NCBI GenBank assembly: GCA_034669905.1
Contig: JAXMOL010000057.1
Span: 1-47,079 of the forward strand
Reading direction: 5' to 3'
Length of the DNA stretch: 47,079 bases
DNA from: Candidatus Hydrogenedentota bacterium
GTDB taxonomy: Bacteria; Hydrogenedentota; Hydrogenedentia; Hydrogenedentales; JAEUWI01
The notes below the pieces were generated by a model. The model saw nothing but the letters and a program-made list of their open reading frames with translations. It was not told the DNA's origin and searched no databases. Below are positions 4,676-47,016 of the stretch, piece after piece (position 1 is the first letter of the stretch; each line of letters begins with the position of its first letter). The position numbers were made by a program, and so were the translations under genes.

Positions 4676-6460
4676 ATGCTGCGAAAAAGCTTGTGCACCT
4701 TGGGAATTCTTTTGGCCTGTTCGACGGTGGCCCAGGACGGCAGCGAAGGGGAAGTGGTTACGGAGGAGGCGGTAGACGCCGTCTCTGAATCCGTCGCCCC
4801 GCCGCCGCCAGCGGACTTTCAACCCACCCCGCCCAATGAGCTGACCTTGCGTTATGGCGACGAACTCGGTGAGGGCGCGGCCATCAACATCCGCGAAGAG
4901 ATCAGTATCGATCTCATCGATCTTGATCCGCTGCGCGAACGTCTGGGCGGAGCCCTTTCTGAAGAACAGTTTAACCTCACCCTCCAGGAATGTATCCTCA
5001 TCGCCCTGGCCGACAACCTCGATATTCAGGTGACCGGCTTTGAACCCCTCAAGTCGGATCAGGATATCTTTACCGCCAAGGGTGAGTTTGACCCCATCCT
5101 TCAGGGCTCGGCCAACTACTCGCGCTCCAATCAGTCGCAGAGCCAACAGGTCGTGGCCTTCGGTGGTGTTTCCAGTGTGGAGTCCTTCACCACCGTCACC
5201 AACGCCACACTGGCGGGCAAGCTCCACCTGGGCACCCAATATTCCCTGGCGTGGAACATGGAAAAATCCGAGTCCACCTTCAGTAATTTCATTGAAGAGC
5301 ACAGCGGCACCCTCTCCCTCCAGCTGACCCAGCCCATCCTCCGCGGCTTCGGCGCCAAATACAATAAGGTCCGCATTAATATTGCCAACAACACGCGCAT
5401 CGCTTCTGAGGCTCAATTGCGGCTCACCGTCCTCAACACGGTCGCCGATGTCATCAAGGCCTATTGGGACCTGGTCGGGGCCATGGAAAACCTCAAGGTC
5501 CGCGCCGAGTCCCTGGATAACGCCGAACGCCTCTTGAAGGTCAACGAGAAGCGCCGCGAAATCGGAACGGCCGCCGACATTGAAGTGCTCCAGGCGAAGG
5601 CCGGTGTGGCCACGCGCCAGAGTGAATTCATCAGCGCCCGACAAAACATCACCGACGCCAGTAACTACCTTAAGAACCTCTTGAATCTGCGCGATGGCGA
5701 CCTCTTCTCCAAGGCGCTCGTCGTCCCCATCGACCGGCCCAACCCCCGGGACCCCGACGAATTTGACCCCAGCGCCTATGAAACCCAGGTGATGGCCAGC
5801 ATCGACGAAGCCCTGGAAAATCGGCCGGAAGTCTTGATTCGTCAGATCGAGATCGACAACGCCGCGCTGGAAGAATACCGCACGAAAAAGGAAATGCTCC
5901 CCCAGCTCGATCTGGTCTACAACTACACCACGGGCGGCCGTGATCATAAACTCCGCGAAACCCTCGACGGCATCTATGAGCGCCAGGATTACGCCTACAC
6001 CTATGGCATCCAGGGTTCCATTCCCATTTTGAATCGGGCGGCCCGGGGCAGCCACAACCGCGCACGCCTTACGCGACGCCAGGCCGAACTGAGCCTCGAG
6101 CAGGCCCGCCAACAACTGATGTTGAGCGTGCACCTGGCGGCCTCCAAGGTCGCTTCCAACGCCATTCTCGTTCAGAGCAACAAGCAGGCCACCCGCCTCC
6201 AGATTGCCAATGTGGCCGCCGAAGAAAAACGCCTCCAGCTGGGCGTCACCACGAGCTGGCAGGTCCTCCAGATTCAACAGGATCTCACCGCCGCCCAGGT
6301 GCAGGAGCTCATCTCCAACATCGAATATGAAAAAGCGCTGGTGGAATTGCAGCTCGCCGAAGGCACCCTGCTCGACACCCTCAATATCGAACTCGACGTG
6401 CCCGAACCCGACGAGAAGCCGGTGGGCTACCTGGAGAGCCTCCGCCCCCGCTGGGAATAA
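4676..6460 (+). CDS. TolC-family outer membrane efflux (OEP) protein
   Basis: Signal peptide; two OEP halves (LTLQECILIALADNLDI, LTQPILRGFG, VIKAYWDL, ALENRPEV, LPQLDL, EEKRLQLGVTT). Confidence 0.9.
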   Translation: MLRKSLCTLGILLACSTVAQDGSEGEVVTEEAVDAVSESVAPPPPADFQPTPPNELTLRYGDELGEGAAINIREEISIDLIDLDPLRERLGGALSEEQFNLTLQECILIALADNLDIQVTGFEPLKSDQDIFTAKGEFDPILQGSANYSRSNQSQSQQVVAFGGVSSVESFTTVTNATLAGKLHLGTQYSLAWNMEKSESTFSNFIEEHSGTLSLQLTQPILRGFGAKYNKVRINIANNTRIASEAQLRLTVLNTVADVIKAYWDLVGAMENLKVRAESLDNAERLLKVNEKRREIGTAADIEVLQAKAGVATRQSEFISARQNITDASNYLKNLLNLRDGDLFSKALVVPIDRPNPRDPDEFDPSAYETQVMASIDEALENRPEVLIRQIEIDNAALEEYRTKKEMLPQLDLVYNYTTGGRDHKLRETLDGIYERQDYAYTYGIQGSIPILNRAARGSHNRARLTRRQAELSLEQARQQLMLSVHLAASKVASNAILVQSNKQATRLQIANVAAEEKRLQLGVTTSWQVLQIQQDLTAAQVQELISNIEYEKALVELQLAEGTLLDTLNIELDVPEPDEKPVGYLESLRPRWE

Positions 6461-6496
6461 GCCGCGGGCGCAACGGCGCGGAACACACGGATTTTA

Positions 6497-6544
6497 CGGA
6501 CGGGATGGACTGCCCTTTGGGGCCATCCCGTTCCGCTTGTTTTG
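6497..6544 (+). terminator. Probable intrinsic terminator after the TolC-family gene
   Basis: CGGACGGGATGG / CCATCCCGTTCCG stem followed by CTTGTTTTG. Confidence 0.5.
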
Positions 6545-6581
6545 AGTACCCCAACACATACCGCATGGAAAGTCTGTAACA

Positions 6582-7679
6582 ATGAGCAAAACCTTTTCTA
6601 TCGCGTTGCTGGAAGGCGACGGCATCGGCCCGGAACTCGCTGTGGAAGCGGTCAAAGTTCTTGAAGCCGTCGAAGCCATCAGCGACGTCAAATTCGACAT
6701 CATGAAGGCCGACTTCGGTGGGGCCGCCTACTTCAAGCACGGCCAGGCCTTCCCCGAAGAAACCAAGGCCATCTGCGACAAGGCCGACGCCATCCTCAAG
6801 GGACCCATCGGGCTCAGCTTTGAAGAGTCCAAGAAAATTCCCGTGGACGAGCAGCCCGAGCGCGGCGCCCTCCTCCCCCTTCGTCGGCGCTACAACACCT
6901 TCGCCAACTTCCGCCCCGTCTACCTCCCCGCCGAGCTCGCCCACTTTTCGCCCCTCAAGGCCCACGTGGTTGAAGGCGGCATCGACCTCATGATGATCCG
7001 CGAGCTCGTCGGTGGCCTCTACTTCGGCAAAAAAGAAGTGGGCGTCAACGCCGCGGGCAAACGCTACGTCGATGAGCACCTCGAATACGACGAAGACCAG
7101 ATCAACGCCATCATGCACGTGGCCTTCAAAGAAGCCATGGGCCGCAAGAAGGTCCTGCACAACGTGCACAAGAGCAACGTGCTGAAATCCAGCGTGCTCT
7201 GGAACGAAGTGCTCGAAGAAGTGGCTGTCGAATATCCCGAAGTCGAAATCAAGCACATCATCGTCGACGCCGCGGCCACGGCCCTCGTCGTCAACCCCCG
7301 CCAGTTTGACGTCATGGTCATGGAAAACATGTTTGGCGACATCCTCAGCGACCTCGGTGGCGGCATCCTCGGCTCCCTCGGTCTCATGCCCTCCGCCTGC
7401 GTCGGCCCCGACAAAGCCTACTACGAACCGTCCCACGGCTCCGCGCCCGACATCGCCGGCCAGGGCATCGCCAACCCCTACAGCATGATCGGCTCCGTGG
7501 CCCTCATGCTCGACAAGAGCTTTGGCATGAAAGACGAGGCCCGCAAGGTATGGGACGCCATGCGCAGCGTATTCGGCGCCGGCATCACCACCGCCGACCT
7601 CCGCGACCCCGAAGGCAAGCTCACCATCATGAAGACCAGCGAGTTTGGCGATAAGGTCGTGGCCTCGCTCAAGGGCTGA
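6582..7679 (+). CDS. leuB: 3-isopropylmalate dehydrogenase
   Basis: GDGIGPE, PERGALLPLR, FANFRP, RELVGGLYFG, ENMFGDILSD and EPSHGSAPDIAG motifs. Confidence 0.96.
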   Translation: MSKTFSIALLEGDGIGPELAVEAVKVLEAVEAISDVKFDIMKADFGGAAYFKHGQAFPEETKAICDKADAILKGPIGLSFEESKKIPVDEQPERGALLPLRRRYNTFANFRPVYLPAELAHFSPLKAHVVEGGIDLMMIRELVGGLYFGKKEVGVNAAGKRYVDEHLEYDEDQINAIMHVAFKEAMGRKKVLHNVHKSNVLKSSVLWNEVLEEVAVEYPEVEIKHIIVDAAATALVVNPRQFDVMVMENMFGDILSDLGGGILGSLGLMPSACVGPDKAYYEPSHGSAPDIAGQGIANPYSMIGSVALMLDKSFGMKDEARKVWDAMRSVFGAGITTADLRDPEGKLTIMKTSEFGDKVVASLKG

Positions 7680-7702
7680 GACAGCACACCAATCATCAAT
7701 CC

Positions 7703-7736
7703 ACGGCACGTCCACTATCGGGCGTGCCGTTTTTAT
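7703..7736 (+). terminator. Intrinsic terminator after leuB
   Basis: ACGGCACGTCC / GGGCGTGCCGT stem followed by TTTTAT. Confidence 0.75.
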
Positions 7737-7757
7737 GTATCGACACCGATGCGAACA

Positions 7758-7786
7758 ACAGGGGGATAGGCATTCCTGCCTGTCAC
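7758..7786. repeat. REP-like palindrome (GATAGGCA-TTCC-TGCCTGTC family)
   Basis: ACAGGGGGATAGGCATTCCTGCCTGTCA is near-identical to 20898-20925. Confidence 0.75.
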
Positions 7787-8004
7787 AAAGTGAACGAAGG
7801 ACAACAGGCAAACTCCATGTCACGTCCCAACACCACGCCGCCATCAAATTTGTGCCCATATCCTCCGCGATTCGGGATTTCCGAAACCACGCTCTGATAC
7901 TCAACAATCTGGAATGTGGGACGACTAGGCTCTATACTTTCTTTGGGCCAGTCGGGCACTAATTTGGGGCAGCCAACACATAGAACAACTTGGGGGTAAC
8001 GACC

Positions 8005-11000
8005 GTGGTATTCGATATCACCTCCGACCATATCGCCGGGCTCTCCGACGAGGACCTTAGGATTCTTGTAGCCTATCTCTGCGAACAAGAAGTACTGAGA
8101 AAAGGATTTTCCCCATCAGCGGTAACCTACGGTGGGAACCAAAATGCACCCGATGGAGGAATCGACGTACGCGTCGACTTGGGCGATGTCAACATTGAAG
8201 GATATCTACCACGCGCCAAGGTCGGCTTTCAGGCTAAAGCAGAAAACTTCCCGCCCGAGAAAATCAAGAAAGAGATATCTCCGAACGGGAAATTGCGCGC
8301 CTCGATTGAAGGCTTGATCTCACTTGGGGGCGCATATATTATCGCAAGCTCTCGAAGCTCAGTCTCCGACTCCTTCCTGGAAAAACGCAAGCAGGCCATG
8401 ACAGACGCAATAGCGTTTGCACCTGGTGCCAATGTACTGTTCCTCGACTTCTATGACAGCCAACGCCTCGCAACTTGGACAAACCAACATCCTGGTGTCG
8501 CTCTGTGGCTGCGAGGACGTATCGGCCAACCGTTACATGGCTGGAAACCTTTCGGCGATTGGTCCAGTTCTCCCGGAGACACGGATGAGGGCTATCTGGT
8601 CAGTGAAGATACACGCCTGAACGATGTAAGAAAACCTAGTCAAGGGTCCCTAGACATAGTCGCCGGAATAGAGCGAATCAGAGGCATTCTAAAGGAGCCC
8701 AACGGGGTAGTTCGTCTCGTCGGCTTGTCAGGTGTAGGCAAAACGAGATTCGCACAGGCGCTCTTCGACGAACGGCGAGGCCAGAATTCCATCTCGCCCC
8801 ACCTGGCAGTCTATACCGACATTTCAGACGAACCTGATCCGCCTCCGCTTGCACTCTTGGAGAGACTGGCAAGTTTCGGCCAGCGCTGCATCATGATCGT
8901 GGACAACTGTGGCCCGGAACTCCACGGAAAACTCGCCAAAGCGCTCAAAGACCCTAATACTCCCGTCAGCCTCCTAACGATTGAGTATGACATCAGCGAC
9001 GACGAACCAGAGGGAACCGATGTCTTTTCACTGGAGCCCGCGACGGATGATTTAATCAAGGAAATCCTCAAACGCCGATACCCGGTCTTGTCCCAACCTG
9101 ATATCCAAACCATTGCCGAATTCTCTGGCGGCAATTTTCGTATCGCTCTTGCATTGGCGAATACGGCGAAAACCGGAGATTCGCTGGCAAAGTTAACGGA
9201 CTCGGTACTATTCGAGAGACTATTTCAACAAAAAAACCCACATGACCCATCCCTCCTTAAAACGGCCAGGGTGTGCTCATTGGTCTATTCATTTGACGGA
9301 GAAACTCTTGACGGTGAAGAGGCAGAGCTACCCATTCTCGCCGAGATTTCAGGTCAGACGGTCAGAGACTTCTATGACAACGTAGCGACATTGAAGCAGC
9401 GCAAATTGGTCCAATCACGGTCAAAATGGCGCGCCCTACTTCCCCAAGCGCTTGCGCACAAATTGGCCAAAGAGGCACTTCAAACCAGCCCTCAGGGATT
9501 TCTAATTACGCAGTTTAGAGAACGCGCGCCGAAGCGACTACTAAAGTCTTTTGCCCGAAGACTAGGGGGATTGCATGATTCCTCAGAAGCACGCTCAATT
9601 GTAGAGTGCTGGCTTGGTACCAACGGATGGTTATCCTCAATCGAGAATCTAAGCGATTTTGAACTGGCAGTTCTTCATAAGATTGCGCCTGTGATGCCTG
9701 AATCCGTACTGGAAATTATTAAGTTCGCTGAAGATCGCAATCCCAAATTACTTAGCCGTGAAGCCAAGTATCGAGAGGGAACTCTTCATCTACTTCGATC
9801 TATCTCCTACGATTCGACTCTATTCGACGACGCCATAGAAATAATTGCCAAACTTGTCCCGAATGATGCCAATGACGTCAATGCGGCAACGGGAGTTTAC
9901 AAATCGCTTTTCTTCATCTATCTATCTGGCACGCTCGCACCTCCAGAGCAACGCGCCAATTTCCTCCGAACGCTGCTCCAGAATCCCACACCCAAGGATT
10001 GTAAATTATTTCTTATCGGATTGGAAGCAATGTTCGAATGTATACACTTCTCATCCACCTACAACTTCGAATTTGGAGCGAGAAAACGAGGATTCGGTTT
10101 AACTCCACGAAGCAGAGAGGAAATCAAGGGCTGGTATTGGCACGCCATTCAAGTCGCTTCTGAAGCGAGTAAACTGGCCCTATATCGAGGTGAGGTACGA
10201 AAACTGGTTGCGAATCAGTTCTGTAACCTTGTATGCGACGAACGGTTAACGAATGAGCTGGTCCTGCTGGGGGAGGAACTCATGCGAGATGGTGGATGGC
10301 CTCAGGGCTGGGTCAACGTTCGCAAAGCAGTCCGAATTCTTCGCCACACAAAACGACGCAGCGATTACAAGATACTTTCGAAACTTGCGAAGTCGCTTTT
10401 TCCACGGAGCCTATGGGAGCGTATTGTCACATACGTACTCCCAAAGCAGTGGTCCGAAGACGACATTTCGATGTTGCACATTGGCAACGAATCGTACCAA
10501 GCCTCAGAAAACGAAAAGATTCACGCAATCTGCGAGGAGATAGGTGCGGAGCTAGGTTGCAACCTAGTCTTGCTCAAGGAATTCCTACCTACGCTACTGG
10601 ATTCCGACACAGCCCAGAACCGGGTCAGACCCGTTATTGAGTCCATTGGAAAGGAAAGTGTAGACCCCGCTCGCACTTGGGAAACTATGGCTGAAACGGT
10701 ACTGTCCGGGCGATATGGCACACAGGCCTCTGAGCCACTCAATTGGCTCCTTTCTGGTTTGAGGGAGATTAATGTTCCACTCGTAGAATTCATACTCGAC
10801 AATGCCTTGAAGGATGTGACCTACCATCCCTATTTCATAGGACTACAGGTCTGCGCTGGCCTCGGCGAGTCTGGGTACCAACGGCTGATGGAAGCAGTCG
10901 AACTGGAAACCGTGCCAACACTGACTTTCCGACATCTCCACCAAAACGGTGGATTGGGTGATAGCCTGAAGCCGAATCAGTTTCATCTTCTCTTAACGAA

Positions 11001-11826
11001 ACTGACACAAAGAGATGGTGGGCTCTCCATCGCACTCAGAATATTGTACATGCGAATTCTACGTCGTCCTGGAGACCCAAAACGCCTGAGCAAACCAGAA
11101 AAAAATTTGGGGCGTGAGTTGCTAATACAATTCGACTTTTCTCACGAATTCCAGATTGAAGACTATCTGCTAAAAATAATCATCGATACATGCTTGTTCA
11201 CACCAGAAGATGCGGACGTGTGCATGCGCCTATGTGAATCCCTCTCAAGTGCAACCAAGTCCGGAGCCACTTGGGGCCAACGCCACAAGTATGCATTGGG
11301 CAGTTTGCTCAACGCCCACCCAAGGATTGTTCTTGACATATTGTTGAACAATGACCACCTCGAGCATAGTCGACTTTGGGATGATTTTGGCGATCCCGAC
11401 GCACGGACCGACTACCCACTGGATAAGGTCAGCGGCGACGAACTGACGGCTTGGGCAGATGTAGAACCCGCCACTCGATATTTGCTACTCGCAAGATTTG
11501 TCCGGGCATGGAATACAACAACGGAAAAGGCTCCGCAAAACCTACATTGGACACACACAGCAAGAGTGCTCATTCGACGGGCGCCAGAGCCGTTGACCAT
11601 CTTAGAAACATTTTTTAGGCGTTTCGAACCACAATGCGTATGGCGTGATGAGCTTGCAGAGATTCTTCGCAACAGAATGGTGCTACTCGACGCGCTGCTA
11701 GATGAACCCGATGTCCAAATAGCGGCGTGGGCACAAGAAGCCAAGGCTACATTGCAGCAAAAAATTGACCAAGAGATTGAGCGGTCGCGAGTTCGGTGTC
11801 GCGAAACGAACGTGCGCTTCGAATAG
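8005..11826 (+). CDS. Large N-terminal PD-(D/E)xK (Mrr-like) nuclease + STAND-type P-loop NTPase + helical C-terminal region; putative Avs-like anti-phage protein
   Basis: DGGID (8152-8166) then FQAK (8227-8238); Walker A GLSGVGKT (8722-8745); Walker B IMIVD (8890-8904); FSGGNFRIA resembles the STAND GxP region. AT-richer than neighbours. GTG at 8005 has a G-rich RBS; the track start is 7990. Confidence 0.7.
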   Translation: MVFDITSDHIAGLSDEDLRILVAYLCEQEVLRKGFSPSAVTYGGNQNAPDGGIDVRVDLGDVNIEGYLPRAKVGFQAKAENFPPEKIKKEISPNGKLRASIEGLISLGGAYIIASSRSSVSDSFLEKRKQAMTDAIAFAPGANVLFLDFYDSQRLATWTNQHPGVALWLRGRIGQPLHGWKPFGDWSSSPGDTDEGYLVSEDTRLNDVRKPSQGSLDIVAGIERIRGILKEPNGVVRLVGLSGVGKTRFAQALFDERRGQNSISPHLAVYTDISDEPDPPPLALLERLASFGQRCIMIVDNCGPELHGKLAKALKDPNTPVSLLTIEYDISDDEPEGTDVFSLEPATDDLIKEILKRRYPVLSQPDIQTIAEFSGGNFRIALALANTAKTGDSLAKLTDSVLFERLFQQKNPHDPSLLKTARVCSLVYSFDGETLDGEEAELPILAEISGQTVRDFYDNVATLKQRKLVQSRSKWRALLPQALAHKLAKEALQTSPQGFLITQFRERAPKRLLKSFARRLGGLHDSSEARSIVECWLGTNGWLSSIENLSDFELAVLHKIAPVMPESVLEIIKFAEDRNPKLLSREAKYREGTLHLLRSISYDSTLFDDAIEIIAKLVPNDANDVNAATGVYKSLFFIYLSGTLAPPEQRANFLRTLLQNPTPKDCKLFLIGLEAMFECIHFSSTYNFEFGARKRGFGLTPRSREEIKGWYWHAIQVASEASKLALYRGEVRKLVANQFCNLVCDERLTNELVLLGEELMRDGGWPQGWVNVRKAVRILRHTKRRSDYKILSKLAKSLFPRSLWERIVTYVLPKQWSEDDISMLHIGNESYQASENEKIHAICEEIGAELGCNLVLLKEFLPTLLDSDTAQNRVRPVIESIGKESVDPARTWETMAETVLSGRYGTQASEPLNWLLSGLREINVPLVEFILDNALKDVTYHPYFIGLQVCAGLGESGYQRLMEAVELETVPTLTFRHLHQNGGLGDSLKPNQFHLLLTKLTQRDGGLSIALRILYMRILRRPGDPKRLSKPEKNLGRELLIQFDFSHEFQIEDYLLKIIIDTCLFTPEDADVCMRLCESLSSATKSGATWGQRHKYALGSLLNAHPRIVLDILLNNDHLEHSRLWDDFGDPDARTDYPLDKVSGDELTAWADVEPATRYLLLARFVRAWNTTTEKAPQNLHWTHTARVLIRRAPEPLTILETFFRRFEPQCVWRDELAEILRNRMVLLDALLDEPDVQIAAWAQEAKATLQQKIDQEIERSRVRCRETNVRFE

Positions 11827-11968
11827 TAAATGGCCGTAAGAACTTGGCAGGTGCCAACAGTGTATGCCTTGCCTCCTTTTCAAAGTAGTTCAGCAGACCC
11901 CGTGACCCATGGTTACCAAAAAACTCGATATTCGAAAAACCTCCGGCGGGCAGCCCTTGCGTACTTTC

Positions 11969-12018
11969 CCGCAGGAGCGGAAAGGCAGGCATTACGACGG
12001 GGGACCGTCGTAACGAGG
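11969..12018. repeat. 50-bp direct repeat, left copy, with a TTACGACGG/CCGTCGTAA hairpin
   Basis: Identical to 12861-12910. GGCAGCCCTTGC also lies just upstream of both copies. Confidence 0.9.
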
Positions 12019-12035
12019 GCAACTTCATTCCTCGC

Positions 12036-12329
12036 TTACTCAAAGAGGGGCGGCAAATCTCGTGCTCCATGAAGCACCCGTAGAATTTCCACGGTTTCCC
12101 CGGAAATTCGGTAGAACAACACATGGTTGCCCACAGGAAAACTTCGGACCCCATCACCCAAATCATCGTCGCGCTTTCGTCCAAGCTCGGGCGACTCGAC
12201 TAAACACTCGGCACCCTGAAATAGACGGGTCAGCAATTTTACCGCGGCAGGCTCGTTATCTTTCGCAAGGTATTCATAGATGTCCGCTAGGTCATGCATC
12301 GCGGCGGGCGTGAAAAAGGGCTCTTTCAT
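12036..12329 (-). CDS. parE: Type II toxin, RelE/ParE family (ParE)
   Basis: FTPAAMHDLADIYEYLAKDN..AA, PELGRKRDDL, VRSFPVGNHVLFYR, EILRVLHGARD. Overlaps the antitoxin stop (ATGA). Confidence 0.93.
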   Translation of the reverse strand: MKEPFFTPAAMHDLADIYEYLAKDNEPAAVKLLTRLFQGAECLVESPELGRKRDDDLGDGVRSFPVGNHVLFYRISGETVEILRVLHGARDLPPLFE

Positions 12330-12589
12330 TGACCCGCCACACCCCTCCTACGGGCTTTCGCGAGCTGAATAATGTCTTCCGGGGTGCAGGTCTTGCTTTC
12401 ACCCCGGTCAGCCTGTTCAATCCCCCTATCAATCGCGGCACGCAGACCGTCCCGCTCCTGGTCGTAACCCTGTTTCTCCATCAGAAGACGCAAGGCCGCA
12501 CGATGGACTTCGCCACTGGATTCATAGAGGCCGGACTCGACCTGTTTTCGAACAAACTCCTCGAGCGCGTGAGGCAGTGAAATATTCAT
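12326..12589 (-). CDS. parD: Type II antitoxin, ParD/CC2985 ribbon-helix-helix family
   Basis: MNISLPHALEEFVRKQVESGLYESSGEV.RAALRLL...LRAAIDRGIEQADRG; AGGAG RBS; directly upstream of parE. Confidence 0.93.
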   Translation of the reverse strand: MNISLPHALEEFVRKQVESGLYESSGEVHRAALRLLMEKQGYDQERDGLRAAIDRGIEQADRGESKTCTPEDIIQLAKARRRGVAGQ

Positions 12590-12657
12590 GAAAAGCTCCT
12601 CTCAACAACACGTCCAACGAATAAGGCTCCGTATGTAATAAGTCGGAAGCCTCCTCA

Positions 12658-12663
12658 ATTATA
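12658..12663 (-). promoter_or_regulatory. Candidate -10 box (TATAAT) for parDE
   Basis: Perfect TATAAT on the minus strand about 70 nt upstream of parD; no convincing -35. Confidence 0.35.
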
Positions 12664-12860
12664 CACCAGACTGCGCCAACAGGAAGTCACGCCCTGCAAC
12701 CGGTGGTTTGGCGGTCGTTCTAGCGTCGACCATCTTTCCCTGGACTCCGACACGGATAGGTTCGACGTGGGTGGTGCCCCCCGATCGTGTAACACACGTT
12801 CGGGTGCGTTGACACGCGGATTCGGGCGACGTAGTGACAGGCAGCCCTTGCACCACGTTT

Positions 12861-12910
12861 CCGCAGGAGCGGAAAGGCAGGCATTACGACGGGGGACCGT
12901 CGTAACGAGG
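12861..12910. repeat. 50-bp direct repeat, right copy
   Basis: Identical to 11969-12018. Confidence 0.9.
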
Positions 12911-12919
12911 ACACAAGTG

Positions 12920-12948
12920 TTGCCACCAGGCCGGTGGCACTCCATAGA
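12920..12948. repeat. REP-like palindrome, copy 2 (see 350-378)
   Basis: 26/29 identity to 350-378. Confidence 0.7.
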
Positions 12949-13126
12949 ACTTCCATCGTGGGGAAAGTCACCGCACCATGGCCTACGTCGCCAGGTGTCA
13001 GCCGAGACGGCTAACCCACGATAGGCCCCCTCCCCCCTATGCTTGTCGCCCGCCGCTTTCCACTGCTACTATGAGCCAGAGGCCTCTCCGGGCTCTTTTC
13101 ATCGGGAAATCCACGAAGAGGTACCT

Positions 13127-15979
13127 ATGCGCATCCTGCTATTCTGCTCGCTCACTGTTTGTCTTGCCGCCCTGGCCCAAGAGCCACCACCGAGCCCCGA
13201 TGAGGCGGACTGGAAGTTCGTCGATGTCCTGTCGGCCCCCATGACGTGGCACCCCCATTGGACCCGCGACACGGTCGCCCATGGCGAAGTGAGTCTCGCG
13301 GGGGGCGTCCAGGTGGCGGCCCAATTCCCCGACGAAGCGGGCACCCTCGAAACGGCCTATAAAGACCTGAGCAATTTCTTTGCGGCGGTCGACATCCCCA
13401 CGGACGGCCCTTTTCGGATCATCACGGAGCGGGTGCCCGACGTCGGCACGGAAGCATTCACCCTCTCCGTTTCCGAGAACGAATGCCGCATCCAGGCAAG
13501 TGACACCGAGGGCATACGGCGGGCCATCTATTTTCTGGAAGACGAGCTGCTGCGCGCGGACGGCCCTTTCCTGGCCATCGGGGAGACCACCCGTTCGCCC
13601 TTCATCAAGACGCGCATTTCCCGCTGTTTCTTTGGCCCCATAAAGCGGCCGCCCATGAACCGGGATGAACTCCTCGACGGGGTGGACTACTATCCCAACG
13701 AATACCTCAACCGCCTGGCCCATGACGGGGTGAATGCCCTCTGGCTGACGGTTACGCTTAAGGACCTGCGGAAGACGTCCCTGGACATCCCCGTCAGTCC
13801 CGACCGGGAGCAGCGCCTGGAAAAACTTCGCAAGACGGTGGCGAAGTGTCGCCGCTACGGCATCGATGTGTTCCTCTTCACCCTTGAGCCCATCTACATG
13901 ACGCCCGGCGATCCCCTCATACTGGCCTACCCGGAACTGGGCGGGATAACGGTGACCGGCAACTACGCCAAGACCTTCTGCCCCACCTCTGAGCTAGCCC
14001 AGACCTACCTGCGCGAATCCCTTTACAGCATTTTTTCCGAAGTCCCCGACCTGGGGGGCCTCATCAACCTCAGCTATGGCGAAGCGCCCACCACCTGCCT
14101 CAGTGAGGCCACGGGCGAAGAGGGCACGATGGACTGCCCCCGGTGTGGCGACAAAAAACCGTGGGAGACCCTCAGCGCCTCTCTGTCGGCCATGGAGCGG
14201 GGCGTCCATGAGGCCGCACCCGACGCCCAGGTGATCTCGTGGCTCTATGTCCCCCATGGCGATTCCGAGATGGTCCTCGACCTGGTCCGCCACACCCCAC
14301 CCGGCGTCACGGTCCAGTTCAATTTCGAATCGGGCGGCAGCAAGGTCCAACTCGGAAAAGCACGCAGCGCGAGCGACTACTGGCTTTCCTATGTGGGCCC
14401 GAGTGACGCCTTCCGGCGCGTGGCCGGTGAGATCAACCCCGAGGCCGGTGGGATGGCCGCCAAAATTCAGGCCTGCAATTCCCACGAGGTCGCCTCCATC
14501 CCCTTCGTCCCCGTTCCGGGTCAACTCTTTGGAAAGTATGAGGCCATGCGCGGCCTGGGCGTGAACACCGTCATGCAATGCTGGTACTTCGGCAACATGC
14601 CCTCCATGATGAACCGGGCGGCAGCCAGTGCCTTGCCCTTTGCACCAGAAGGCCAGCGCGCCGACGCATTCCTGGAGCAACTGGCGCGCCGTGATTGGGC
14701 CGCGGACGATGTGCCCCAGGTGGTGGAGGCCTGGCGTCTCTTTGCCCAGGCCTATGAGCACTATCCCCTGAGCAACGCCTTCCAGTTCTACGGCCCCATG
14801 ACCGACGGCCTCGTGTGGCCCCTCCACCTGAAACCGGTCCACCTCCCCCTCGGACCCACCTGGCGCACCGACTACCCCATTTCCGCCGACCGTATTGGTG
14901 AGAGTTTTTCGGGAACCCACACCTATCCCGAAGTGCTCCAGCTCTGTGGCGCCCTATCCGACACCTGGAATCGCGGGGTCGAAATGCTTGGCGCCCTCCA
15001 GCCGAAGTATGCGGACGAAGAAGATCGGCGGATGGATATCTCCGTGGCCCAGGCCCTGGGCATCCAGTTTCGCTCGGGCTACAACATCCTCCGCTTCTAT
15101 GATCTCCGGGAACAACTCCTCTACGGACCCGCAGACACGCGCGCGGAAAGCCTCGATACCTTGCGCGCCATCGTGAAGGAGGAAATAAAAAATGCCCAGG
15201 ACATGGCCGTGCTGTGTGAGGCGAACCCCTTCCTCGGATTCCACTCCGAAGCGGAAGACTACAAATATTTCCCCGCGAAACTGCAATGGCGCGCCGGGCT
15301 CTTGCGCACCCTCCTCAACACCGAGTTTAGCGAGGCCGCGCGCGCAGTGGCTGCAGGCGCGCCGGTCTTTCCCGTGCGCTCCGGCATGAGTGACGAAACC
15401 CTCGCCTATACGTGCCCGACCGCACCGCCCTCCTTCGCCACCGCATGGCGTAGCGATGCCTCGTGGCAATCCATAGTCGAATCCAGCGCGGAGGTGGCCC
15501 CCCTCACACCCAGCGCGCCTGCCGTATCCTGGCGGGCCGTCCACGACGCGGATGCCCTCTACGTAGACATCCAAAGTGCCGTCGGCGAAAATGCGCCCGC
15601 CCTGTCCGCCGTCGTACATGTCCAGGCGGCCCACATTTATCCCCGCCTGAGCTTTACCCTTGACGAAAGGGGTGTCCGCGAGACCCAGCTCGGCTGGCAC
15701 GTCGAATCCGACCAATGGGAGGCCGAAACGACAACCGCCGACGGATTCCGCACCTTCCGCTTCCGCATTCCCTTTGAGATCTTCAACGGCGAGTACGATC
15801 CCGACACCTACCCATCGCGGCCCCTGCGTATCAACGTCCAGCTCCATTCCAATCCCCGCGGGACCCCCACGAACATTATCCAGACCTGGGCGCCCCTCTC
15901 GGACAGTCCCCCGCGCTACCGCCTGGGCTACGGTGCCGAAGACCCCGCCGAAATGGGTTGGCTACACCTCGTCCCCTGA
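13127..15979 (+). CDS. Secreted hypothetical protein, glycoside-hydrolase-like (GH20/GH67-type N-terminal domain, probable TIM barrel, C-terminal beta domain)
   Basis: GAGG RBS, ATG 13127, signal peptide MRILLFCSLTVCLAALA. EAFTLSVSENECRIQASDTEGIRRAIYFLE resembles hexosaminidase domain 2. Paralogous to 37738-40125. Confidence 0.7.
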   Translation: MRILLFCSLTVCLAALAQEPPPSPDEADWKFVDVLSAPMTWHPHWTRDTVAHGEVSLAGGVQVAAQFPDEAGTLETAYKDLSNFFAAVDIPTDGPFRIITERVPDVGTEAFTLSVSENECRIQASDTEGIRRAIYFLEDELLRADGPFLAIGETTRSPFIKTRISRCFFGPIKRPPMNRDELLDGVDYYPNEYLNRLAHDGVNALWLTVTLKDLRKTSLDIPVSPDREQRLEKLRKTVAKCRRYGIDVFLFTLEPIYMTPGDPLILAYPELGGITVTGNYAKTFCPTSELAQTYLRESLYSIFSEVPDLGGLINLSYGEAPTTCLSEATGEEGTMDCPRCGDKKPWETLSASLSAMERGVHEAAPDAQVISWLYVPHGDSEMVLDLVRHTPPGVTVQFNFESGGSKVQLGKARSASDYWLSYVGPSDAFRRVAGEINPEAGGMAAKIQACNSHEVASIPFVPVPGQLFGKYEAMRGLGVNTVMQCWYFGNMPSMMNRAAASALPFAPEGQRADAFLEQLARRDWAADDVPQVVEAWRLFAQAYEHYPLSNAFQFYGPMTDGLVWPLHLKPVHLPLGPTWRTDYPISADRIGESFSGTHTYPEVLQLCGALSDTWNRGVEMLGALQPKYADEEDRRMDISVAQALGIQFRSGYNILRFYDLREQLLYGPADTRAESLDTLRAIVKEEIKNAQDMAVLCEANPFLGFHSEAEDYKYFPAKLQWRAGLLRTLLNTEFSEAARAVAAGAPVFPVRSGMSDETLAYTCPTAPPSFATAWRSDASWQSIVESSAEVAPLTPSAPAVSWRAVHDADALYVDIQSAVGENAPALSAVVHVQAAHIYPRLSFTLDERGVRETQLGWHVESDQWEAETTTADGFRTFRFRIPFEIFNGEYDPDTYPSRPLRINVQLHSNPRGTPTNIIQTWAPLSDSPPRYRLGYGAEDPAEMGWLHLVP

Positions 15980-16022
15980 GGGCGTCCTATTGGTTCCCAT
16001 TGTCAGCAACGCGACAAGCGTG

Positions 16023-16051
16023 TTGACAGCTTTCACTTTTTCTTGTAAAGT
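16023..16051 (+). promoter_or_regulatory. sigma70-type promoter for the four-gene membrane-protein operon
   Basis: TTGACA (16023-16028), 17-nt spacer, TAAAGT (16046-16051). Confidence 0.65.
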
Positions 16052-16094
16052 ACTTCTTGTGAGCGAACCATAGCGAGAGGGGAAGCTTCCGAAA

Positions 16095-17369
16095 ATGTCG
16101 ATCTTCATCAAGGAAAACCATTCGGGCGCAAGCGACGGAGATATCTGTCTGAGTCTGGCCCTTGGCGCACCCATAATCGGGGCCGTGGTAGGTGCCGGAC
16201 TCAAGACAGCGGGACATGAGTTCGCTCTTGATGCCTGGATCGGACTGTGCCTGGGCCATCTTGTGTTGGCTTGCCTCCTCGGCTTTTCGGCCTTTAGCCC
16301 GGTGGGGAATGAGGATGGGGTCCGCCGTTCATACGGATCTGCCGTAGTTGGAACCTTCATCGCGGCCTCCATCCTCATCGCATGGATCTTTCTATTGCCC
16401 GCCATCGTCCACCAGGCGAACGCCTTCCACAAACGTGGATGCCACCACAATCTCAAATACCTGGGCTTGAGCCTGGCCATGTACGGCAACGAACAGGACG
16501 GTGAAGCCTATCCCCCCCTGAGTCCAAAGGCGGGTTGCCTGATGCCGGAAATGAGCGAGCTCCACCCCGAATACTTGGATGATCTCACCCTGATTCACTG
16601 CCCGGAATTCCGGGACCCGCGCTTGCCTCTCTCCCCTGAATCCGAATTTGCTGCGGTACTTAGCGATCAGAGTTACTTCTATCTGGGCTACATGATCGAT
16701 GGTCCAGACACGCTCCGGGCCTTTCAAACGGCCTATGAAAAGGTCATTGCGGAAGGGGGAAGTTTCGAATCGGATCTTCCCGTGCCAGCCGGGCAAGGCA
16801 CGTGGGGTGGCGATACTATCCCCCGGCTGAGTGATGACCTGTCCCTCGTCTACCCCGGCTTCGACGAAGCGAAAGAAGATCACGTTGCCGCTGCGCACAA
16901 ACTGCAGCACCAAATCCCGGTGATGATTGAGCGCGTCGGGCACCACCCCATTGATGGTGCAAAACCCAGGCAACTCGGCCATGTGCTCTATCTGGATGGT
17001 TTTGTGGAGCCATTGGACTATGCAGGTGAATGGCCCATGACGAAAGAGACCCAGGATATCTTACATGCCTTGGATAAGCTGGGACCCTATGTGCCCGAAG
17101 GTGCGATCACCCTACCTCGGAAGCCACCGTATGAACAGTGGGCAGCGCTAGCCTTCGTTATCGGAACGGTGCTCTTCATACTCTGGCGTTACCTCCGCTT
17201 TTCCGCCCTGACCCTCCCCCTGTTTTACCTGCTTTTCGGTCTGACCGTTTATGGATTGGTACACACCCGAGGCTCCGTACCTCCGGGACTCCTTGTGGCG
17301 ACGCCCGATGGGGAGGTCACCTATCACGTCTTGGAGCCCGCACCCGGTCCGAAGGGCATGGCACGATGA
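16095..17369 (+). CDS. Membrane protein with inserted DUF1559/H-X9-DG-like domain, paralogue 1
   Basis: About 3 N-terminal TMs; CHHNLKYLGLSLAMYGNE...YPPLS, SYFYLGY, IPVMIER..H..HVLYLDG; 2 C-terminal TMs. Confidence 0.8.
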   Translation: MSIFIKENHSGASDGDICLSLALGAPIIGAVVGAGLKTAGHEFALDAWIGLCLGHLVLACLLGFSAFSPVGNEDGVRRSYGSAVVGTFIAASILIAWIFLLPAIVHQANAFHKRGCHHNLKYLGLSLAMYGNEQDGEAYPPLSPKAGCLMPEMSELHPEYLDDLTLIHCPEFRDPRLPLSPESEFAAVLSDQSYFYLGYMIDGPDTLRAFQTAYEKVIAEGGSFESDLPVPAGQGTWGGDTIPRLSDDLSLVYPGFDEAKEDHVAAAHKLQHQIPVMIERVGHHPIDGAKPRQLGHVLYLDGFVEPLDYAGEWPMTKETQDILHALDKLGPYVPEGAITLPRKPPYEQWAALAFVIGTVLFILWRYLRFSALTLPLFYLLFGLTVYGLVHTRGSVPPGLLVATPDGEVTYHVLEPAPGPKGMAR

Positions 17370-22672: not shown

Positions 22673-25435
22673 TTATGTGAGGGGCGCCTGGAGCGGAAAG
22701 GTCAGCAATCCGTAGTACCCCAGGGGCAGGTAGATGGCACCGTCACCCACACGGAATCGGGATGGATAGCCCGTGCTGTTCACGAGTTGCACCAGTCTCC
22801 CTTTGCCCTCATCGAATTGATAGTGGGCCACCGCACCTGCGCCGCCCAGGGCCACCAGGGCGTGGTCCCCCGTGACGCCGAGCAGGTTCCCATAGGCCGG
22901 TCCATAATCGATTCGATCCCCCAGGGTCAGCGAGCCATCGCCATTCACGGTCACCTGTTGGAAGGTGATCCCCTCCCCATAGGATTCATAATAGACCCGA
23001 CCTTCCGATGCCTGGAAATTGAAGCTGTAATCCGGCATTCTCCGGCTGGCGACAGGAATCACCGTGTCGCCACCATCCCAGGAAACCGTCTTGAGGCTGG
23101 TGATCGTCTCTCCACTCGCCGCCCACTGATGGTCGACCAGGGTCAACACGTCGTTTTGGGGGGCGTAGGCGAGGAAGGCACCGGGCACATTCACGGCGGG
23201 ACCGTCTTCCTCACCTTCCACATCGATGGACTGCACATAGTAGGCCGCCATGGGGTTGAAGATGCGCCGTCCGGCCTGTTCTTTACTACTGAGGTAAAGG
23301 GTATCCTCCACGGTATGGAGCGAAACAACCTGCGCGGCACCAAAGCCGATGGTCTGGCCCACCGTGGCGGTGCGGAGATCGACGGTGGCGATTCCCTGGT
23401 AGGCCACGCCATTCCCCACGACCCGGTCGAAATGCTCGGAAAAGCAGCGAAGGACCAATTGATTGCCCACCCGGTAAATGCTGTCTTCGACGGGGCTGTA
23501 GTAGTAGGGCTGGGAGGTCTTGGAGGCGACGCCATCTTCCGGAAAACCTTCGTCTCGGAAAATATCAAAGCCGTAGTAATAGGAGAAAAAGGGGTCCACC
23601 TCTACGGTGAGGCTCTCGGTCACCTCGGGTGCCGCGGGGTTGGCAATGTCTACCAGGGTGACCACATAGTGGGCCTGCCCCTCGTAGTCTACACTCACGA
23701 CTACCGCCGTGTTCTCGTAAATTACCGCATCCTGATAGTACCCGCCCCGAAGGGACACTTCGCCCAGGAGCGCCTGTTCGCCATCCACCGTGCGGAGGAG
23801 CAGGGCGTCGCCTTCCCGGGGCGCGATCAATTCGACTCCCAGGTCGCTGTCCACAGGAAGAAAGTCCACGAGATTCTCCGCAAGCACCACGGAGGCCACC
23901 ACCTTGGGCACATCCAGGTCCGCGGCATCGATTCGTGATACGCGCTCCGTCGTCACACCAAAGTGAAAGGCGTCATAGTCGAAGGAGCGAAGGATGGTCC
24001 CTTCCACATCCACACTCCCCCGGAGCGTGAGAGAATCGGCGGTGTAGGAAATAAACTGGAGCCGGTCAAAGCCGCCACCGTAGCCATTCCATCCCGAGAA
24101 GGGCACGATAAGCAAATCGTCCAATACGGTGAAGGCCTTTACATCGCTGTACGCGCTCGACCACGTCCAGTTTTCCCCAAAGCTGACCCGGTCCACCAGG
24201 GTGGGCGCACCATTTCCCGACACGTCAAAAATACTCACGGTGACCTGGTTGCCATTGCGATTGGTATTGTCGACGCCCAGGGCAATCAGGCGGTCCCCCT
24301 GGGTTTCGATGTGGGTCGAATAGCCCGGCACCTCCAACGCACCCAACACGACGGGGTTCGTGGGATCACTCAGGTCAAGCACGAAAAGCGGGTCTACCAC
24401 CAGGAAGGTAACGACATAGGCCCGGGCACCGTCGAAGCGCGTAGCAAAGAGGGTCTCCCCGGCGGCCCCTTCGATGGCCCGCTCGGCCAGTCGGGACAGG
24501 GCCGGGTCGCGGAGGTCAAAGGTGCTCACATAGACCTGGCGCTCCTGCTGCCAATCCGAAGACACTACCCGCAACACGCCATTCCAGGCGTCCAGCTTGA
24601 AACGATCGCCCACATAACCCCGTACCGCCATCTGGCCCCGTTCCACAATGGCGCCGTCGGCATCCGTGATATCCAGGTAGGTGATTACGGTGCGGGTCGA
24701 CCCCCAGTCGTTGGTCACCACAAAAACGGCTTCCGAATTGACGTGGATGAGATAGCCCGTGCCGGCCACATCCACCCGATCCACCGCCTCCAGTGACGCA
24801 GGGTTCGACACATCGATGCTGGTAACAATCATGCCGGGCTCGGTCGTCCGGGGCGTAAAATCGGCGTCATAGCTATAGCCATAGTCCACCGTGACCGCAT
24901 AGAAAATCGACCCGACCAGGCGGCTGTCCACCAGGTCGCCCGTCAACGCCAGCGCGCCCTGAATGCGTGCGGTGGCGGGATCCGACACATCAACGGCGTA
25001 CATGTGGGAACTCAGCGAAACGGAGAGGGAATTGCCTTCGGCCTGGACCTGCTGGCTCCCCCCCACCAGGACGTAGGCCACACCCTCCGCAAAATAGAGA
25101 TCTTTCGGGATCCCCAAGGTCGGCACCTGGACCAGGAGGGTATCCGTATCGAGGTCAACAATACTCAAACCACGAAACTGATTGAGCACGTAGAGGAGAT
25201 TGCCTTCCCGACGGATGACGTCGGGCTCCACAACGGTCCGCCCTCCCCCTCCCTCGCCCTCGCCAGCGTCATCTTCGGCAGTATTTTCCCCAAAGGCTTC
25301 GGGCCCATTGCCCCGTCCCCCGTCGTTGGAGATATCGGCACTGGTAAAGGTCCGCTGTTCGACCGTAATGAGGGGGCAACCCACCAGTCCGATGGGTATT
25401 GCAAGTGAAATCAGGAAAAGACACCAGGATCGCAT
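22673..25435 (-). CDS. Beta-propeller domain (Beta_propel) lipoprotein
   Basis: Lipobox LVGC; EPDVIR, DSRLVG, ETLFATRFDG, VTFLVVDPLFVLDLSDP and LEVPGYSTHI motifs. ATG 25435 with GGAGG. Confidence 0.85.
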   Translation of the reverse strand: MRSWCLFLISLAIPIGLVGCPLITVEQRTFTSADISNDGGRGNGPEAFGENTAEDDAGEGEGGGGRTVVEPDVIRREGNLLYVLNQFRGLSIVDLDTDTLLVQVPTLGIPKDLYFAEGVAYVLVGGSQQVQAEGNSLSVSLSSHMYAVDVSDPATARIQGALALTGDLVDSRLVGSIFYAVTVDYGYSYDADFTPRTTEPGMIVTSIDVSNPASLEAVDRVDVAGTGYLIHVNSEAVFVVTNDWGSTRTVITYLDITDADGAIVERGQMAVRGYVGDRFKLDAWNGVLRVVSSDWQQERQVYVSTFDLRDPALSRLAERAIEGAAGETLFATRFDGARAYVVTFLVVDPLFVLDLSDPTNPVVLGALEVPGYSTHIETQGDRLIALGVDNTNRNGNQVTVSIFDVSGNGAPTLVDRVSFGENWTWSSAYSDVKAFTVLDDLLIVPFSGWNGYGGGFDRLQFISYTADSLTLRGSVDVEGTILRSFDYDAFHFGVTTERVSRIDAADLDVPKVVASVVLAENLVDFLPVDSDLGVELIAPREGDALLLRTVDGEQALLGEVSLRGGYYQDAVIYENTAVVVSVDYEGQAHYVVTLVDIANPAAPEVTESLTVEVDPFFSYYYGFDIFRDEGFPEDGVASKTSQPYYYSPVEDSIYRVGNQLVLRCFSEHFDRVVGNGVAYQGIATVDLRTATVGQTIGFGAAQVVSLHTVEDTLYLSSKEQAGRRIFNPMAAYYVQSIDVEGEEDGPAVNVPGAFLAYAPQNDVLTLVDHQWAASGETITSLKTVSWDGGDTVIPVASRRMPDYSFNFQASEGRVYYESYGEGITFQQVTVNGDGSLTLGDRIDYGPAYGNLLGVTGDHALVALGGAGAVAHYQFDEGKGRLVQLVNSTGYPSRFRVGDGAIYLPLGYYGLLTFPLQAPLT

Positions 25436-25515
25436 GAAACTTGGCCTCCGAAAAGACAATTACTGCCTTGGGCAGGGATCCGCAGCGATCCCTGTATACA
25501 GAATACCATGCTTCT

Positions 25516-30908: not shown

Positions 30909-31004
30909 TCTGGCCAGGATGGTAACAACCGACTGGCCGACCGTTCGTATTATCCGCACAATACAGCATGAAACCCGATGGCATTCAGAGGGGAAGGAAT
31001 AACC

Positions 31005-46649: not shown

Positions 46650-47016
46650 GAGTGAACAGACCTTATCTGTTGTTACGTTACCGTCAACCGATGCCTCCGA
46701 AAAGGTCACCGTGCTTTGAAGGGACAGTTTACCACGGGGAACCCTGCCGTCTCCCCCCGAAACCGACCACTGCTTCCAGGCTCCCACCCCAATCAGCCTA
46801 CGCGATACGCATCTTTCTGTCAAAACCACCGGACGGCACCGTCCGATCACACACGTCCATTGCCCTACCCCACCCCACTGAAACCTAAATAAGCGAAGGT
46901 AGACCTCGATCGAATCCAACTCGTTCGGTACGACAGCGCATGCAAGCGCCTGCAAAAGGCCAACGGACGTTCGGCTTGGCCACTATTGATTAAAGAAGTC
47001 TTTGACATTTGGGAGC

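Follow-up and report, generated by a model that had tools for sequence, protein, structure and literature searches.

In the 47,079-nucleotide stretch of Candidatus Hydrogenedentota DNA that we analysed (the window; contig JAXMOL010000057.1), a variable site bounded by leuB and a conserved 978-codon gene holds a gene for a homologue of the antiphage protein Avs8A, beside a ParDE pair (Table 1). Its reading frame on the + strand is uninterrupted from TTG 7990 or GTG 8005 to 11826. We take the GTG as the likely start, because a run of GGGGG ends 8 nt before it, because homologues begin with M-x-F-[ED]-[IV]-T, and because the public gene call on the same contig (P0002) is 1273 aa long; the in-frame TTG is an alternative start. 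A putative terminator 3' of leuB would separate leuB from the Avs8 transcription unit. Upstream of the gene, a scan for promoters detected no sigma-70-like site, and Rfam returned nothing at E ≤ 0.1 between 7600 and 13100. No RNA run among the listed sequencing runs held the gene, which is neutral with respect to its activity.

Table 1. Features of the Avs8 locus; positions are those of the window and residue numbers follow the 1273-aa protein.
Feature	Position	Strand	Remarks
Terminator-like hairpin + T-run 3' of leuB	7703..7730	+	consensus scan, 11-pair stem; consensus match only
Segment missing at this site in G007, the closest relative searched	7786..12849	.	holds Avs8, one REP-like repeat, ParDE
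avs8A homologue gene	8005..11826	+	ORF list and translation; 1273 codons plus stop
Predicted nuclease domain, Mrr-like PD-(D/E)xK	8005..8529	+	aa 1 to ~175; boundary approximate
Catalytic signature DGGID...FQAK	8152..8238	+	DGGID aa 50-54 (8152-8166), FQAK aa 75-78 (8227-8238)
STAND-type P-loop NTPase with helical and winged-helix modules	8647..9639	+	aa ~215-545
Walker A GLSGVGKT	8722-8745	+	aa 240-247
Walker B IMIVDN	8890-8907	+	aa 296-301
C-terminal all-alpha solenoid sensor	9640..11823	+	aa ~546-1273; ends in conserved ...RFE
REP-like 59-nt dispersed repeat	11963..12021	+	second copy 12855-12913, 95% identical; pair flanks ParDE
ParE toxin	12036-12329	-	Pfam ParE_toxin E 5e-22
ParD antitoxin	12326-12589	-	Pfam ParD_antitoxin E 1.3e-6

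The composition of the gene marks it as foreign to its surroundings. Its GC content is 50.3%, compared with 59.0% for the genome, and a value that low occurs in just 0.37% of 7105 equally long genome windows; its GC3 is 51.5%, compared with 83.6% for leuB and 77.5% for the downstream 978-codon gene. The preliminary description of this DNA had called the composition foreign on the strength of two spot counts, 26/60 at 9661-9720 and 44/60 in leuB at 6841-6900; both counts are exact, and the whole-gene values bear the claim out.

The occupancy of the site varies within the genus. In a BLAST comparison of window positions 5000-16500 with the other genomes, the match to a contig of G007 (C664) runs to 7785 and resumes at 12850, and leuB and the 978-codon gene lie 235 bp apart in G002 and about 1 kb apart in G006. 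The site holds LRR and pentapeptide-repeat proteins in G007, and a CHASE4/HAMP histidine kinase with a response-regulator GGDEF protein in G008. We found an Avs8 homologue in none of the eight same-genus genomes (0/8); this absence and the variability of the site point to horizontal acquisition of the gene. The window has no recognisable defence island: PADLOC matched 0/31 of the other window ORFs. It also matched 0/5 ORFs at the site in G007 and G008; among the relatives that we looked at, this is not a hotspot for defence genes. The ParDE pair is genomic context, a neighbour without an assigned part in the Avs8 system; the same cassette, 94% identical, lies at another locus in G007, which lacks Avs8. 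The REP-like repeat, which folds as two hairpins (z -4.0), gave 43 blastn matches to the genome, including 37 of 45 nt or longer, on 20 contigs.

In a second study, contigs that span some 3356 nt of the gene share both the leuB-side and the ParDE-side junctions with the window copy. They list eight differences within the gene (~0.3%) and no gained or lost letters. Between the two studies' contigs, the Avs8 cassette differs by about 0.3%, the adjoining leuB side by about 7%. We also considered that the Avs8 and ParDE segment might exist as an excised circle or in tandem, since at ≥90% similarity a joint from 13017 to 7758, going back 5260, appeared in contigs of three runs with a short side of 23-32 letters. 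This joint vanishes at ≥97% similarity, and we attribute it to repeats or other organisms.

The gene product is a member of a described family over its full length. The PADLOC model PD-Lambda-4_A (PDLC03991) matches it with E 8.8e-258 and 856.5 bits, residues 7-1278 aligning with model positions 3-1283 of 1283, and a six-frame profile scan of the DNA gives the identical result. With this model the window protein scores 856 bits, a Tatumella (Enterobacterales) protein 781 and a Pseudomonas protein 875, within the span of 781-1113 for the five relatives scanned. BLASTP against the Tatumella ptyseos homologue is colinear from end to end, with 31% identity over 1300 columns. We found 3623 homologues at E ≤ 0.001, and nearly all of the 120 among the matches listed are 1250-1305 aa long; the homologue loci (at least 80) span Pseudomonadota, Acidobacteriota, Bacillota, Chloroflexota, Bacteroidota and other phyla. 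In our tree, the window protein and two relatives (P0003 and P0004) form a well-supported clade of their own, distant from the enteric and Pseudomonas clade.

PD-lambda-4, since renamed Avs8, was defined by Vassallo et al. 2022, according to a preprint (bioRxiv 10.1101/2025.07.02.662641); a term search of the main text of Vassallo et al. (PMC9519451) did not return 'PD-lambda-4'. The preliminary description had proposed an unclassified Avs-like protein, and this part fails on the full-length match. By the reckoning of the preliminary description itself, such a match to a characterised system tells against the novelty only. The proposed architecture (predicted Mrr-like PD-(D/E)xK nuclease, STAND NTPase and helical sensor, in that order) and the Avs-type antiphage logic that goes with it are supported. 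This is a real gene of an already-described defence family, predicted to act against phages, and not one of a new kind.

The N-terminus is predicted to be an Mrr-like nuclease with an intact active-site motif. All of the motifs named in the preliminary description, DGGID...FQAK, GLSGVGKT and IMIVD(N), are present in the translation, and D54, Q76 and K78 of the first are conserved in 41/41 aligned family members. In the AlphaFold2 model, the N-terminus has an alpha-beta-beta-beta-alpha-beta order (helix 15-32; strands 40-42, 55-58 and 72-78; helices 84-106; strand 110-115), with D54 immediately preceding the second strand and QxK inside the third. Aligning the region to 19 Mrr_cat domains with hhalign placed DGGID on DGGID and QxK on QxK, although the alignment is weak (probability 25%, E 7.6e-4). 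An Atlas feature search with residues 1-200, which we treat as a lead only, returned Mrr_cat clusters as 19 of its 30 named matches, at ~0.90. For the window protein and for 41 N-terminal halves, the Pfam matches were to P-loop families, all weak, with no nuclease family among them. The structure-search matches listed for the N-half model cover only about residues 152/175-550 and so do not confirm the putative nuclease fold.

The middle of the protein is a STAND-type NTPase in which both Walker motifs are present. Residues G240-T247 of Walker A and D300-N301 of Walker B are invariant in 41 family members; the Walker B motif ends in D-N rather than D-D/E, and it does so throughout the family. 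In Foldseek searches, the best matches of the N-half AlphaFold2 model (pLDDT 85.3) were Avs3 (8dgc), the STAND-TPR protein 6mfv, Avs4 (8dgf, E 4.8e-8) and NOD2. Over model residues ~152/175-550, VIA-align gave Z scores of 13.8 for NLRC4, 12.9 for Apaf-1 and 12.9 for 6mfv. An N-half profile searched against the sequences of solved structures found matches at the P-loop level only (best E 0.003) and no solved Avs8.

The preliminary description had noted a long helical C-terminal region, which the modelling confirms: AlphaFold2 folds the C-terminal 734 residues into some 40 helices, any strands being short (mean pLDDT 86.0, pTM 0.75). The Foldseek matches of this sensor model are generic alpha-solenoids only, such as transportins and importins, at E 9e-5 to 1e-3. 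The family profile and BLASTP alignments extend to the final residue, and the C-terminal ERFE/RFE is present in 40 homologue loci.

The mechanism of the family has been described for E. coli. Avs8A alone gives full defence against lambda, Avs8B being dispensable; the protein binds gpE with a KD of 127 nM, the capsid protein triggers Mg2+- and ATP-dependent degradation of dsDNA, and mutants of the nuclease active site lose defence, as reported in the preprint cited above (bioRxiv 10.1101/2025.07.02.662641). A second preprint reports that Avs8 senses major capsid proteins and is modelled on the A-domain (bioRxiv 10.64898/2026.01.04.697583). By analogy, the C-terminal solenoid of the window protein would bind HK97-fold major capsid protein in its monomeric form as infection produces it; activation would depend on ATP, probably proceed through oligomerisation, and turn on the N-terminal nuclease, which would then degrade phage and host dsDNA and abort the infection. 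A candidate partner is encoded in the same genome, an HK97 capsid protein (G000:C69:32713-33846; PF05065, 82.6 bits; phrog_10, E 1.9e-34). We put at about 0.85 the probability that the gene product is a full-length Avs8 (PD-lambda-4A) member that acts like the E. coli protein, its DNase activity and protective effect being expected by homology. The suggested novelty of sensor and trigger is unsupported, given that an HK97-fold capsid trigger and dsDNA degradation are known for E. coli Avs8.

We can only infer the capsid trigger for the window protein because its sensor half, although colinear with 40 aligned relatives, is just 22-34% identical to them (median 26%); for the nuclease-NTPase half, the identities are 41-58%. 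It is conceivable, if unlikely, that in the deep-branching clade of the window protein, P0003 and P0004 the sensor is specialised for capsids from still unknown Hydrogenedentota phages or for another trigger, and that the cassette has spread very recently between diverged strains, as the two divergence values, ~0.3% and ~7%, might suggest. We know of no isolated phages of Candidatus Hydrogenedentota.

A related proposal, that this nuclease-STAND sensor has been retargeted to some other phage protein, or recognises only the capsids of an unknown phage group, seems to us quite improbable. It draws on the uneven divergence of the two halves and on the separate clade, but the sensor is colinear throughout with the family profile and with the enterobacterial member, and fast-evolving sensors that retain their target are usual in Avs families. 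E. coli Avs8 also tolerates capsid proteins with less than 15% identity, according to a preprint's Discussion, and two tested homologues, EcAvs8 and KpAvs8, are both modelled on capsid protein in a preprint figure legend.

The claim that the gene stands alone is borne out by a genome-wide profile scan: nothing in the genome (95.7% complete) matches PD-Lambda-4_B (PDLC03992), nor do any of the 12 ORFs near the gene. Nor did we find it in 118 flanking ORFs at 20 relatives' loci, and Avs8B was linked to A in 0/5 other genomes searched. The missing Avs8B is no argument against Avs8A membership, because B is dispensable in E. coli and unlinked in relatives. That the gene is an inactive or decaying passenger, acquired horizontally and since deprived of its defensive role, for instance for want of a partner, is very improbable: the genome does lack Avs8B and the gene stands apart from other defence genes, but its 1273 codons stay open, every family-invariant catalytic residue is retained, the second-study copy shows eight differences without a listed gain or loss, and relatives, too, lack B beside the gene.

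Among characterised systems, E. coli ECOR07 Avs8A (WP_000963924.1) shares with the window protein its family assignment, predicted domain order and length class (~1270-1290 aa); according to the preprint, the E. coli protein suffices on its own. In contrast, the window protein falls in a separate clade and is about 31% identical to the Tatumella protein, the sole Enterobacterales member compared; its genome lacks Avs8B, and its host belongs to Candidatus Hydrogenedentota rather than Gammaproteobacteria. PADLOC-DB v2 presumably includes models for AVAST types I-V, and at E ≤ 1 PADLOC returned only the three PD-Lambda-4_A models, and thus no Avs4 profile. Avs4 (AVAST type 4) has the design predicted for the window protein: an N-terminal nuclease that the preprint describes as Mrr-like (bioRxiv 10.1101/2025.07.02.662641), a STAND NTPase, a repeat sensor and a tetrameric active form. 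Unlike the Avs8 family, which senses major capsid protein, Avs4 is bound to the PhiV-1 portal in the structure named by the title of 8dgf. Avs7 and Avs10 are other capsid-sensing Avs families, with sensor architectures that a preprint describes as different.

On these results, what was a 'hypothetical protein' can be named as a defence gene whose trigger is predicted, and they extend Avs8 to a poorly known candidate phylum, where it occurs as a single gene without Avs8B. The conceptual novelty is small, given that the family is very widespread and its mechanism has been described for E. coli. The gene is chiefly useful for its diverged sensor sequence, with which the recognition of the HK97 fold by Avs8 can be studied.

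The window protein belongs to Avs8/PD-lambda-4A as a fairly distant member that stands alone and was acquired horizontally; the family is already known, and the protein is a further member of it, not a new type. PADLOC matches it to the model PD-Lambda-4_A (PDLC03991) with an E-value of 8.8e-258, residues 7-1278 aligning to positions 3-1283 of the 1283-position model, and this full-length match shows that the preliminary description, correct in calling the protein Avs-like, was wrong to call it unclassified. A six-frame search of the genome with the same model returned this locus as its sole match. The score of 856 bits falls within the range of relatives scanned by the same method (Tatumella 781, Pseudomonas 875, Brevundimonas 952, Paenibacillus 1113), and BLASTP against the Tatumella ptyseos protein gives 31% identity across 1300 columns, colinear from residue 7 to the C-terminal residue. 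Pfam and NCBIfam scans of the protein yielded weak P-loop signals only. There are 3623 homologues at E<=0.001; among the matches listed, the top two are 82% and 56% identical, the others are at most 46% identical, and those carrying a source name are termed hypothetical. Nearly all of 120 listed homologues are 1250-1305 amino acids long. With each species represented by a single genome, a scan found 80 loci, distributed over Alpha-, Beta- and Gammaproteobacteria, Acidobacteriota, Chloroflexota, Bacillota, Bacteroidota and other phyla, and relatives are present in 43 plasmid records.

The gene is one open frame on the plus strand, running from TTG 7990 or GTG 8005 to a stop at 11826. We take GTG 8005 as the probable start because it is preceded by a GGGGG run whose end lies 8 nt upstream, because the frame read from there has the N-terminus M-x-F-[ED]-[IV]-T common to relatives, and because the public gene call for the contig is 1273 amino acids long (database entry P0002). 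All four motifs named in the preliminary description are present in this frame, with IMIVD here extended to IMIVDN. Its GC spot counts of 26/60 in this gene and 44/60 in leuB are exact, and the foreign-looking composition that it noted is borne out by the whole gene, which has 50.3% GC compared to 59.0% for the genome; GC is as low as this in 0.37% of 7105 genome windows of equal length. GC3 is 51.5%, whereas leuB has 83.6% and the 978-codon gene on the downstream side 77.5%.

Positions of features in the window
Feature	Position	Strand	Remark
leuB/978-codon-gene intergenic site	7680-13042		
Terminator-like hairpin	7703-7730		3' of leuB
DGGID	8152-8166	+	residues 50-54
FQAK	8227-8238	+	residues 75-78
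GLSGVGKT	8722-8745	+	residues 240-247
IMIVDN	8890-8907	+	residues 296-301
Sensor hairpin F-G-A-R-x-R-x-x-G	10072-10098		residues 690-698
C-terminal RFE	11812-11823		
59-nt repeat, two copies	11963-12021 and 12855-12913		95% identical; either side of ParDE
ParE/ParD cassette with both repeats	11964-12909		
Very long ORF	22673-25459	-	928 codons
Very long ORF	30978-37244	+	2088 codons
Very long ORF	42291-46955	-	1554 codons

In an alignment of 41 N-terminal halves (A2), D54, Q76, K78, G240-T247 and D300-N301 are invariant. The Walker B motif reads D-N in all family members aligned. The AlphaFold2 model of the N-terminal half has a mean pLDDT of 85.3 and a pTM of 0.77. The NTPase is STAND-like, because the PDB structures that Foldseek ranks highest for this model are Avs3 (8dgc), a STAND-TPR protein (6mfv), Avs4 (8dgf) and NOD2, and VIA-align matches it to NLRC4 (Z 13.8), Apaf-1 (12.9) and 6mfv (12.9); these matches span residues ~152/175 to 550, which is the NTPase and not the nuclease domain. 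Three points speak for an Mrr-like fold in the N-terminal domain. The modeled order is helix, three strands, helix, strand, with D54 immediately preceding the second strand and QxK within the third. Profile-profile alignment with 19 Mrr_cat domains drawn from related genomes places DGGID over DGGID and QxK over QxK, although the match is weak (probability 25%, E 7.6e-4). Finally, in a language-model look-alike search with residues 1-200, Mrr_cat clusters made up 19 of the 30 named matches, at ~0.90, which is a lead only. Pfam nuclease families matched none of the 41 members.

The C-terminal region, described earlier as apparently helical, indeed forms ~40 helices in an AlphaFold2 model of the C-terminal 734 residues (pLDDT 86.0), and the likeness of this sensor model is limited to generic alpha-solenoids such as transportins and importins. 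Identity to relatives is 22-34% in the sensor half versus 41-58% in the N-terminal half. Within the otherwise fast-evolving sensor, the hairpin listed in the table, several tryptophans and the C-terminal RFE are almost invariant across the 41 family members of the sensor alignment (A3).

The PD-Lambda-4_B model (PDLC03992), representing Avs8B, has no match in the whole genome (95.7% complete) and none among the 12 ORFs surrounding the Avs8 gene. Five other A-carrying genomes gave one unlinked partial B-like match and, in four cases, none, and among 118 ORFs that flank the gene at 20 loci of relatives, none matched at E<=1e-15. An A gene without B is the usual state. In an E. coli control genome the B model matches and the A model does not, so B-like genes also occur without A.

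Upstream of the gene lie housekeeping genes encoding an RsmE-like methyltransferase, ndk, a DUF1844 protein, an outer-membrane efflux protein and leuB; on its 3' side, a ParE/ParD pair on the opposite strand is followed by the 978-codon gene. The 59-nt repeat that brackets ParDE folds into two hairpins (z -4.0) and has 43 blastn matches in the genome (37 of at least 45 nt, on 20 contigs), with more copies in same-genus genomes; Rfam has no match for it, and it looks like a REP-type dispersed element. The cassette with both repeats is 94% identical at another locus of the closest relative searched (G007:C244:12867-13812). Given that this relative is without Avs8, ParDE seems to move or recombine independently of it.

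The leuB-side region and the 978-codon gene are each matched in all eight same-genus genomes. In assemblies that keep both flanks on a single contig, the distance separating them is 235 bp (G002), ~1 kb (G006), ~2.9 kb (G007), ~4.9 kb (G008) and, in the window, ~5.4 kb; within the genus, the cargo carried at this intergenic site varies. G008 has a CHASE4 histidine kinase and a GGDEF regulator there, and G007 has LRR and pentapeptide-repeat proteins; PADLOC matched none of these five ORFs, and this cargo is not defense-related. The PD-Lambda-4_A model matches 0/8 same-genus genomes, 0/46 other same-order genomes and 1/14 same-family genomes, the last through a fragment of 66 residues at the edge of a contig in G012, a 60% complete genome. 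We built a FastTree tree with 52 rows (45 loci with an intact frame, the window protein and six database proteins; loci without one were left out), in which the window protein forms a clade with the database homologues P0003 and P0004. A Novosphingobium/Brevundimonas/Sphingobacteriales group is the sister of this clade, and the enteric/Pseudomonas clade is distant from it. The window's housekeeping proteins, for their part, belong to clusters at 90% identity that include members labeled Candidatus Hydrogenedentota bacterium. Next to the Avs8 gene there is neither an integrase nor another mobility gene. Its composition, its scattered occurrence and a tree that conflicts with taxonomy together point to horizontal acquisition.

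Words sampled from the gene turn up in 16 sequencing runs from 8 studies, none of them RNA, with at least half of the words in 7 runs from 2 studies. One contig of the second study spans 7446-9625, from the leuB 3' end into Avs8, with 7 differences in 1976 nt from 7650; another spans 10760-12609 (Avs8 3' end, repeat, ParE, ParD), with 22 differences, mostly outside Avs8. A run of a third study gave a contig on 7706-9395 with 54 differences. An assembly error in a single data set therefore does not account for the gene arrangement. In run X3 of the second study, the efflux protein/leuB side (6000-7414) differs from the window at 101 of 1415 positions (~7%) versus ~0.3% in Avs8, which could mean that the cassette moved from strain to strain recently; the two lie on separate contigs.

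PADLOC matches none of the 31 other ORFs of the window. The three very long ORFs listed in the table have host-like GC3 and no PADLOC match. We also scanned up to six of the longest flanking ORFs at each of 20 relatives' loci (25 were chosen and 5 oversized ones dropped): 7/20 have at least one match at E<=1e-15 and 13/20 have none, figures that describe the loci and do not measure enrichment. The clear defense systems are Qat and SoFic (L004), type I restriction-modification (L024, L027), Rmr with an ApeA-like protein (L025) and Olokun (L051); an RtcR-like match (L012) and a mad2-like match (L037) are doubtful.

The sole HK97-family capsid gene in the genome (G000:C69:32713-33846; L094:1486-2619, minus strand) matches PF05065 with 82.6 bits and phrog_10 with E 1.9e-34. 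It lies near a contig end, followed by two small uncharacterized ORFs and then by a gene that appears folE-like from its translation; it represents either the edge of a prophage or a remnant. The same genome thus carries both this gene and an Avs8 protein predicted to sense such proteins.

One preprint (bioRxiv 10.1101/2025.07.02.662641) gives PD-lambda-4 the new name Avs8 and reports that Avs8A of E. coli ECOR07, which combines a STAND NTPase and an Mrr nuclease domain, defends against lambda as well alone as in the two-gene operon, Avs8B being dispensable. There, Avs8A binds both lambda gpE (KD 127 nM) and the capsid protein of Bas21; capsid monomers, not assembled virions, trigger dsDNA degradation, which requires Mg2+ and ATP, and nuclease active-site mutants lose defense. 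A second preprint (bioRxiv 10.64898/2026.01.04.697583) counts Avs8 among the families sensing major capsid proteins and models its TPR-like sensor on the capsid A-domain, at the penton/hexon interface. Beyond these two, a full-text literature search for 'Avs8' returned one passing mention. Purely by homology, the window protein is likewise predicted to sense capsid proteins.
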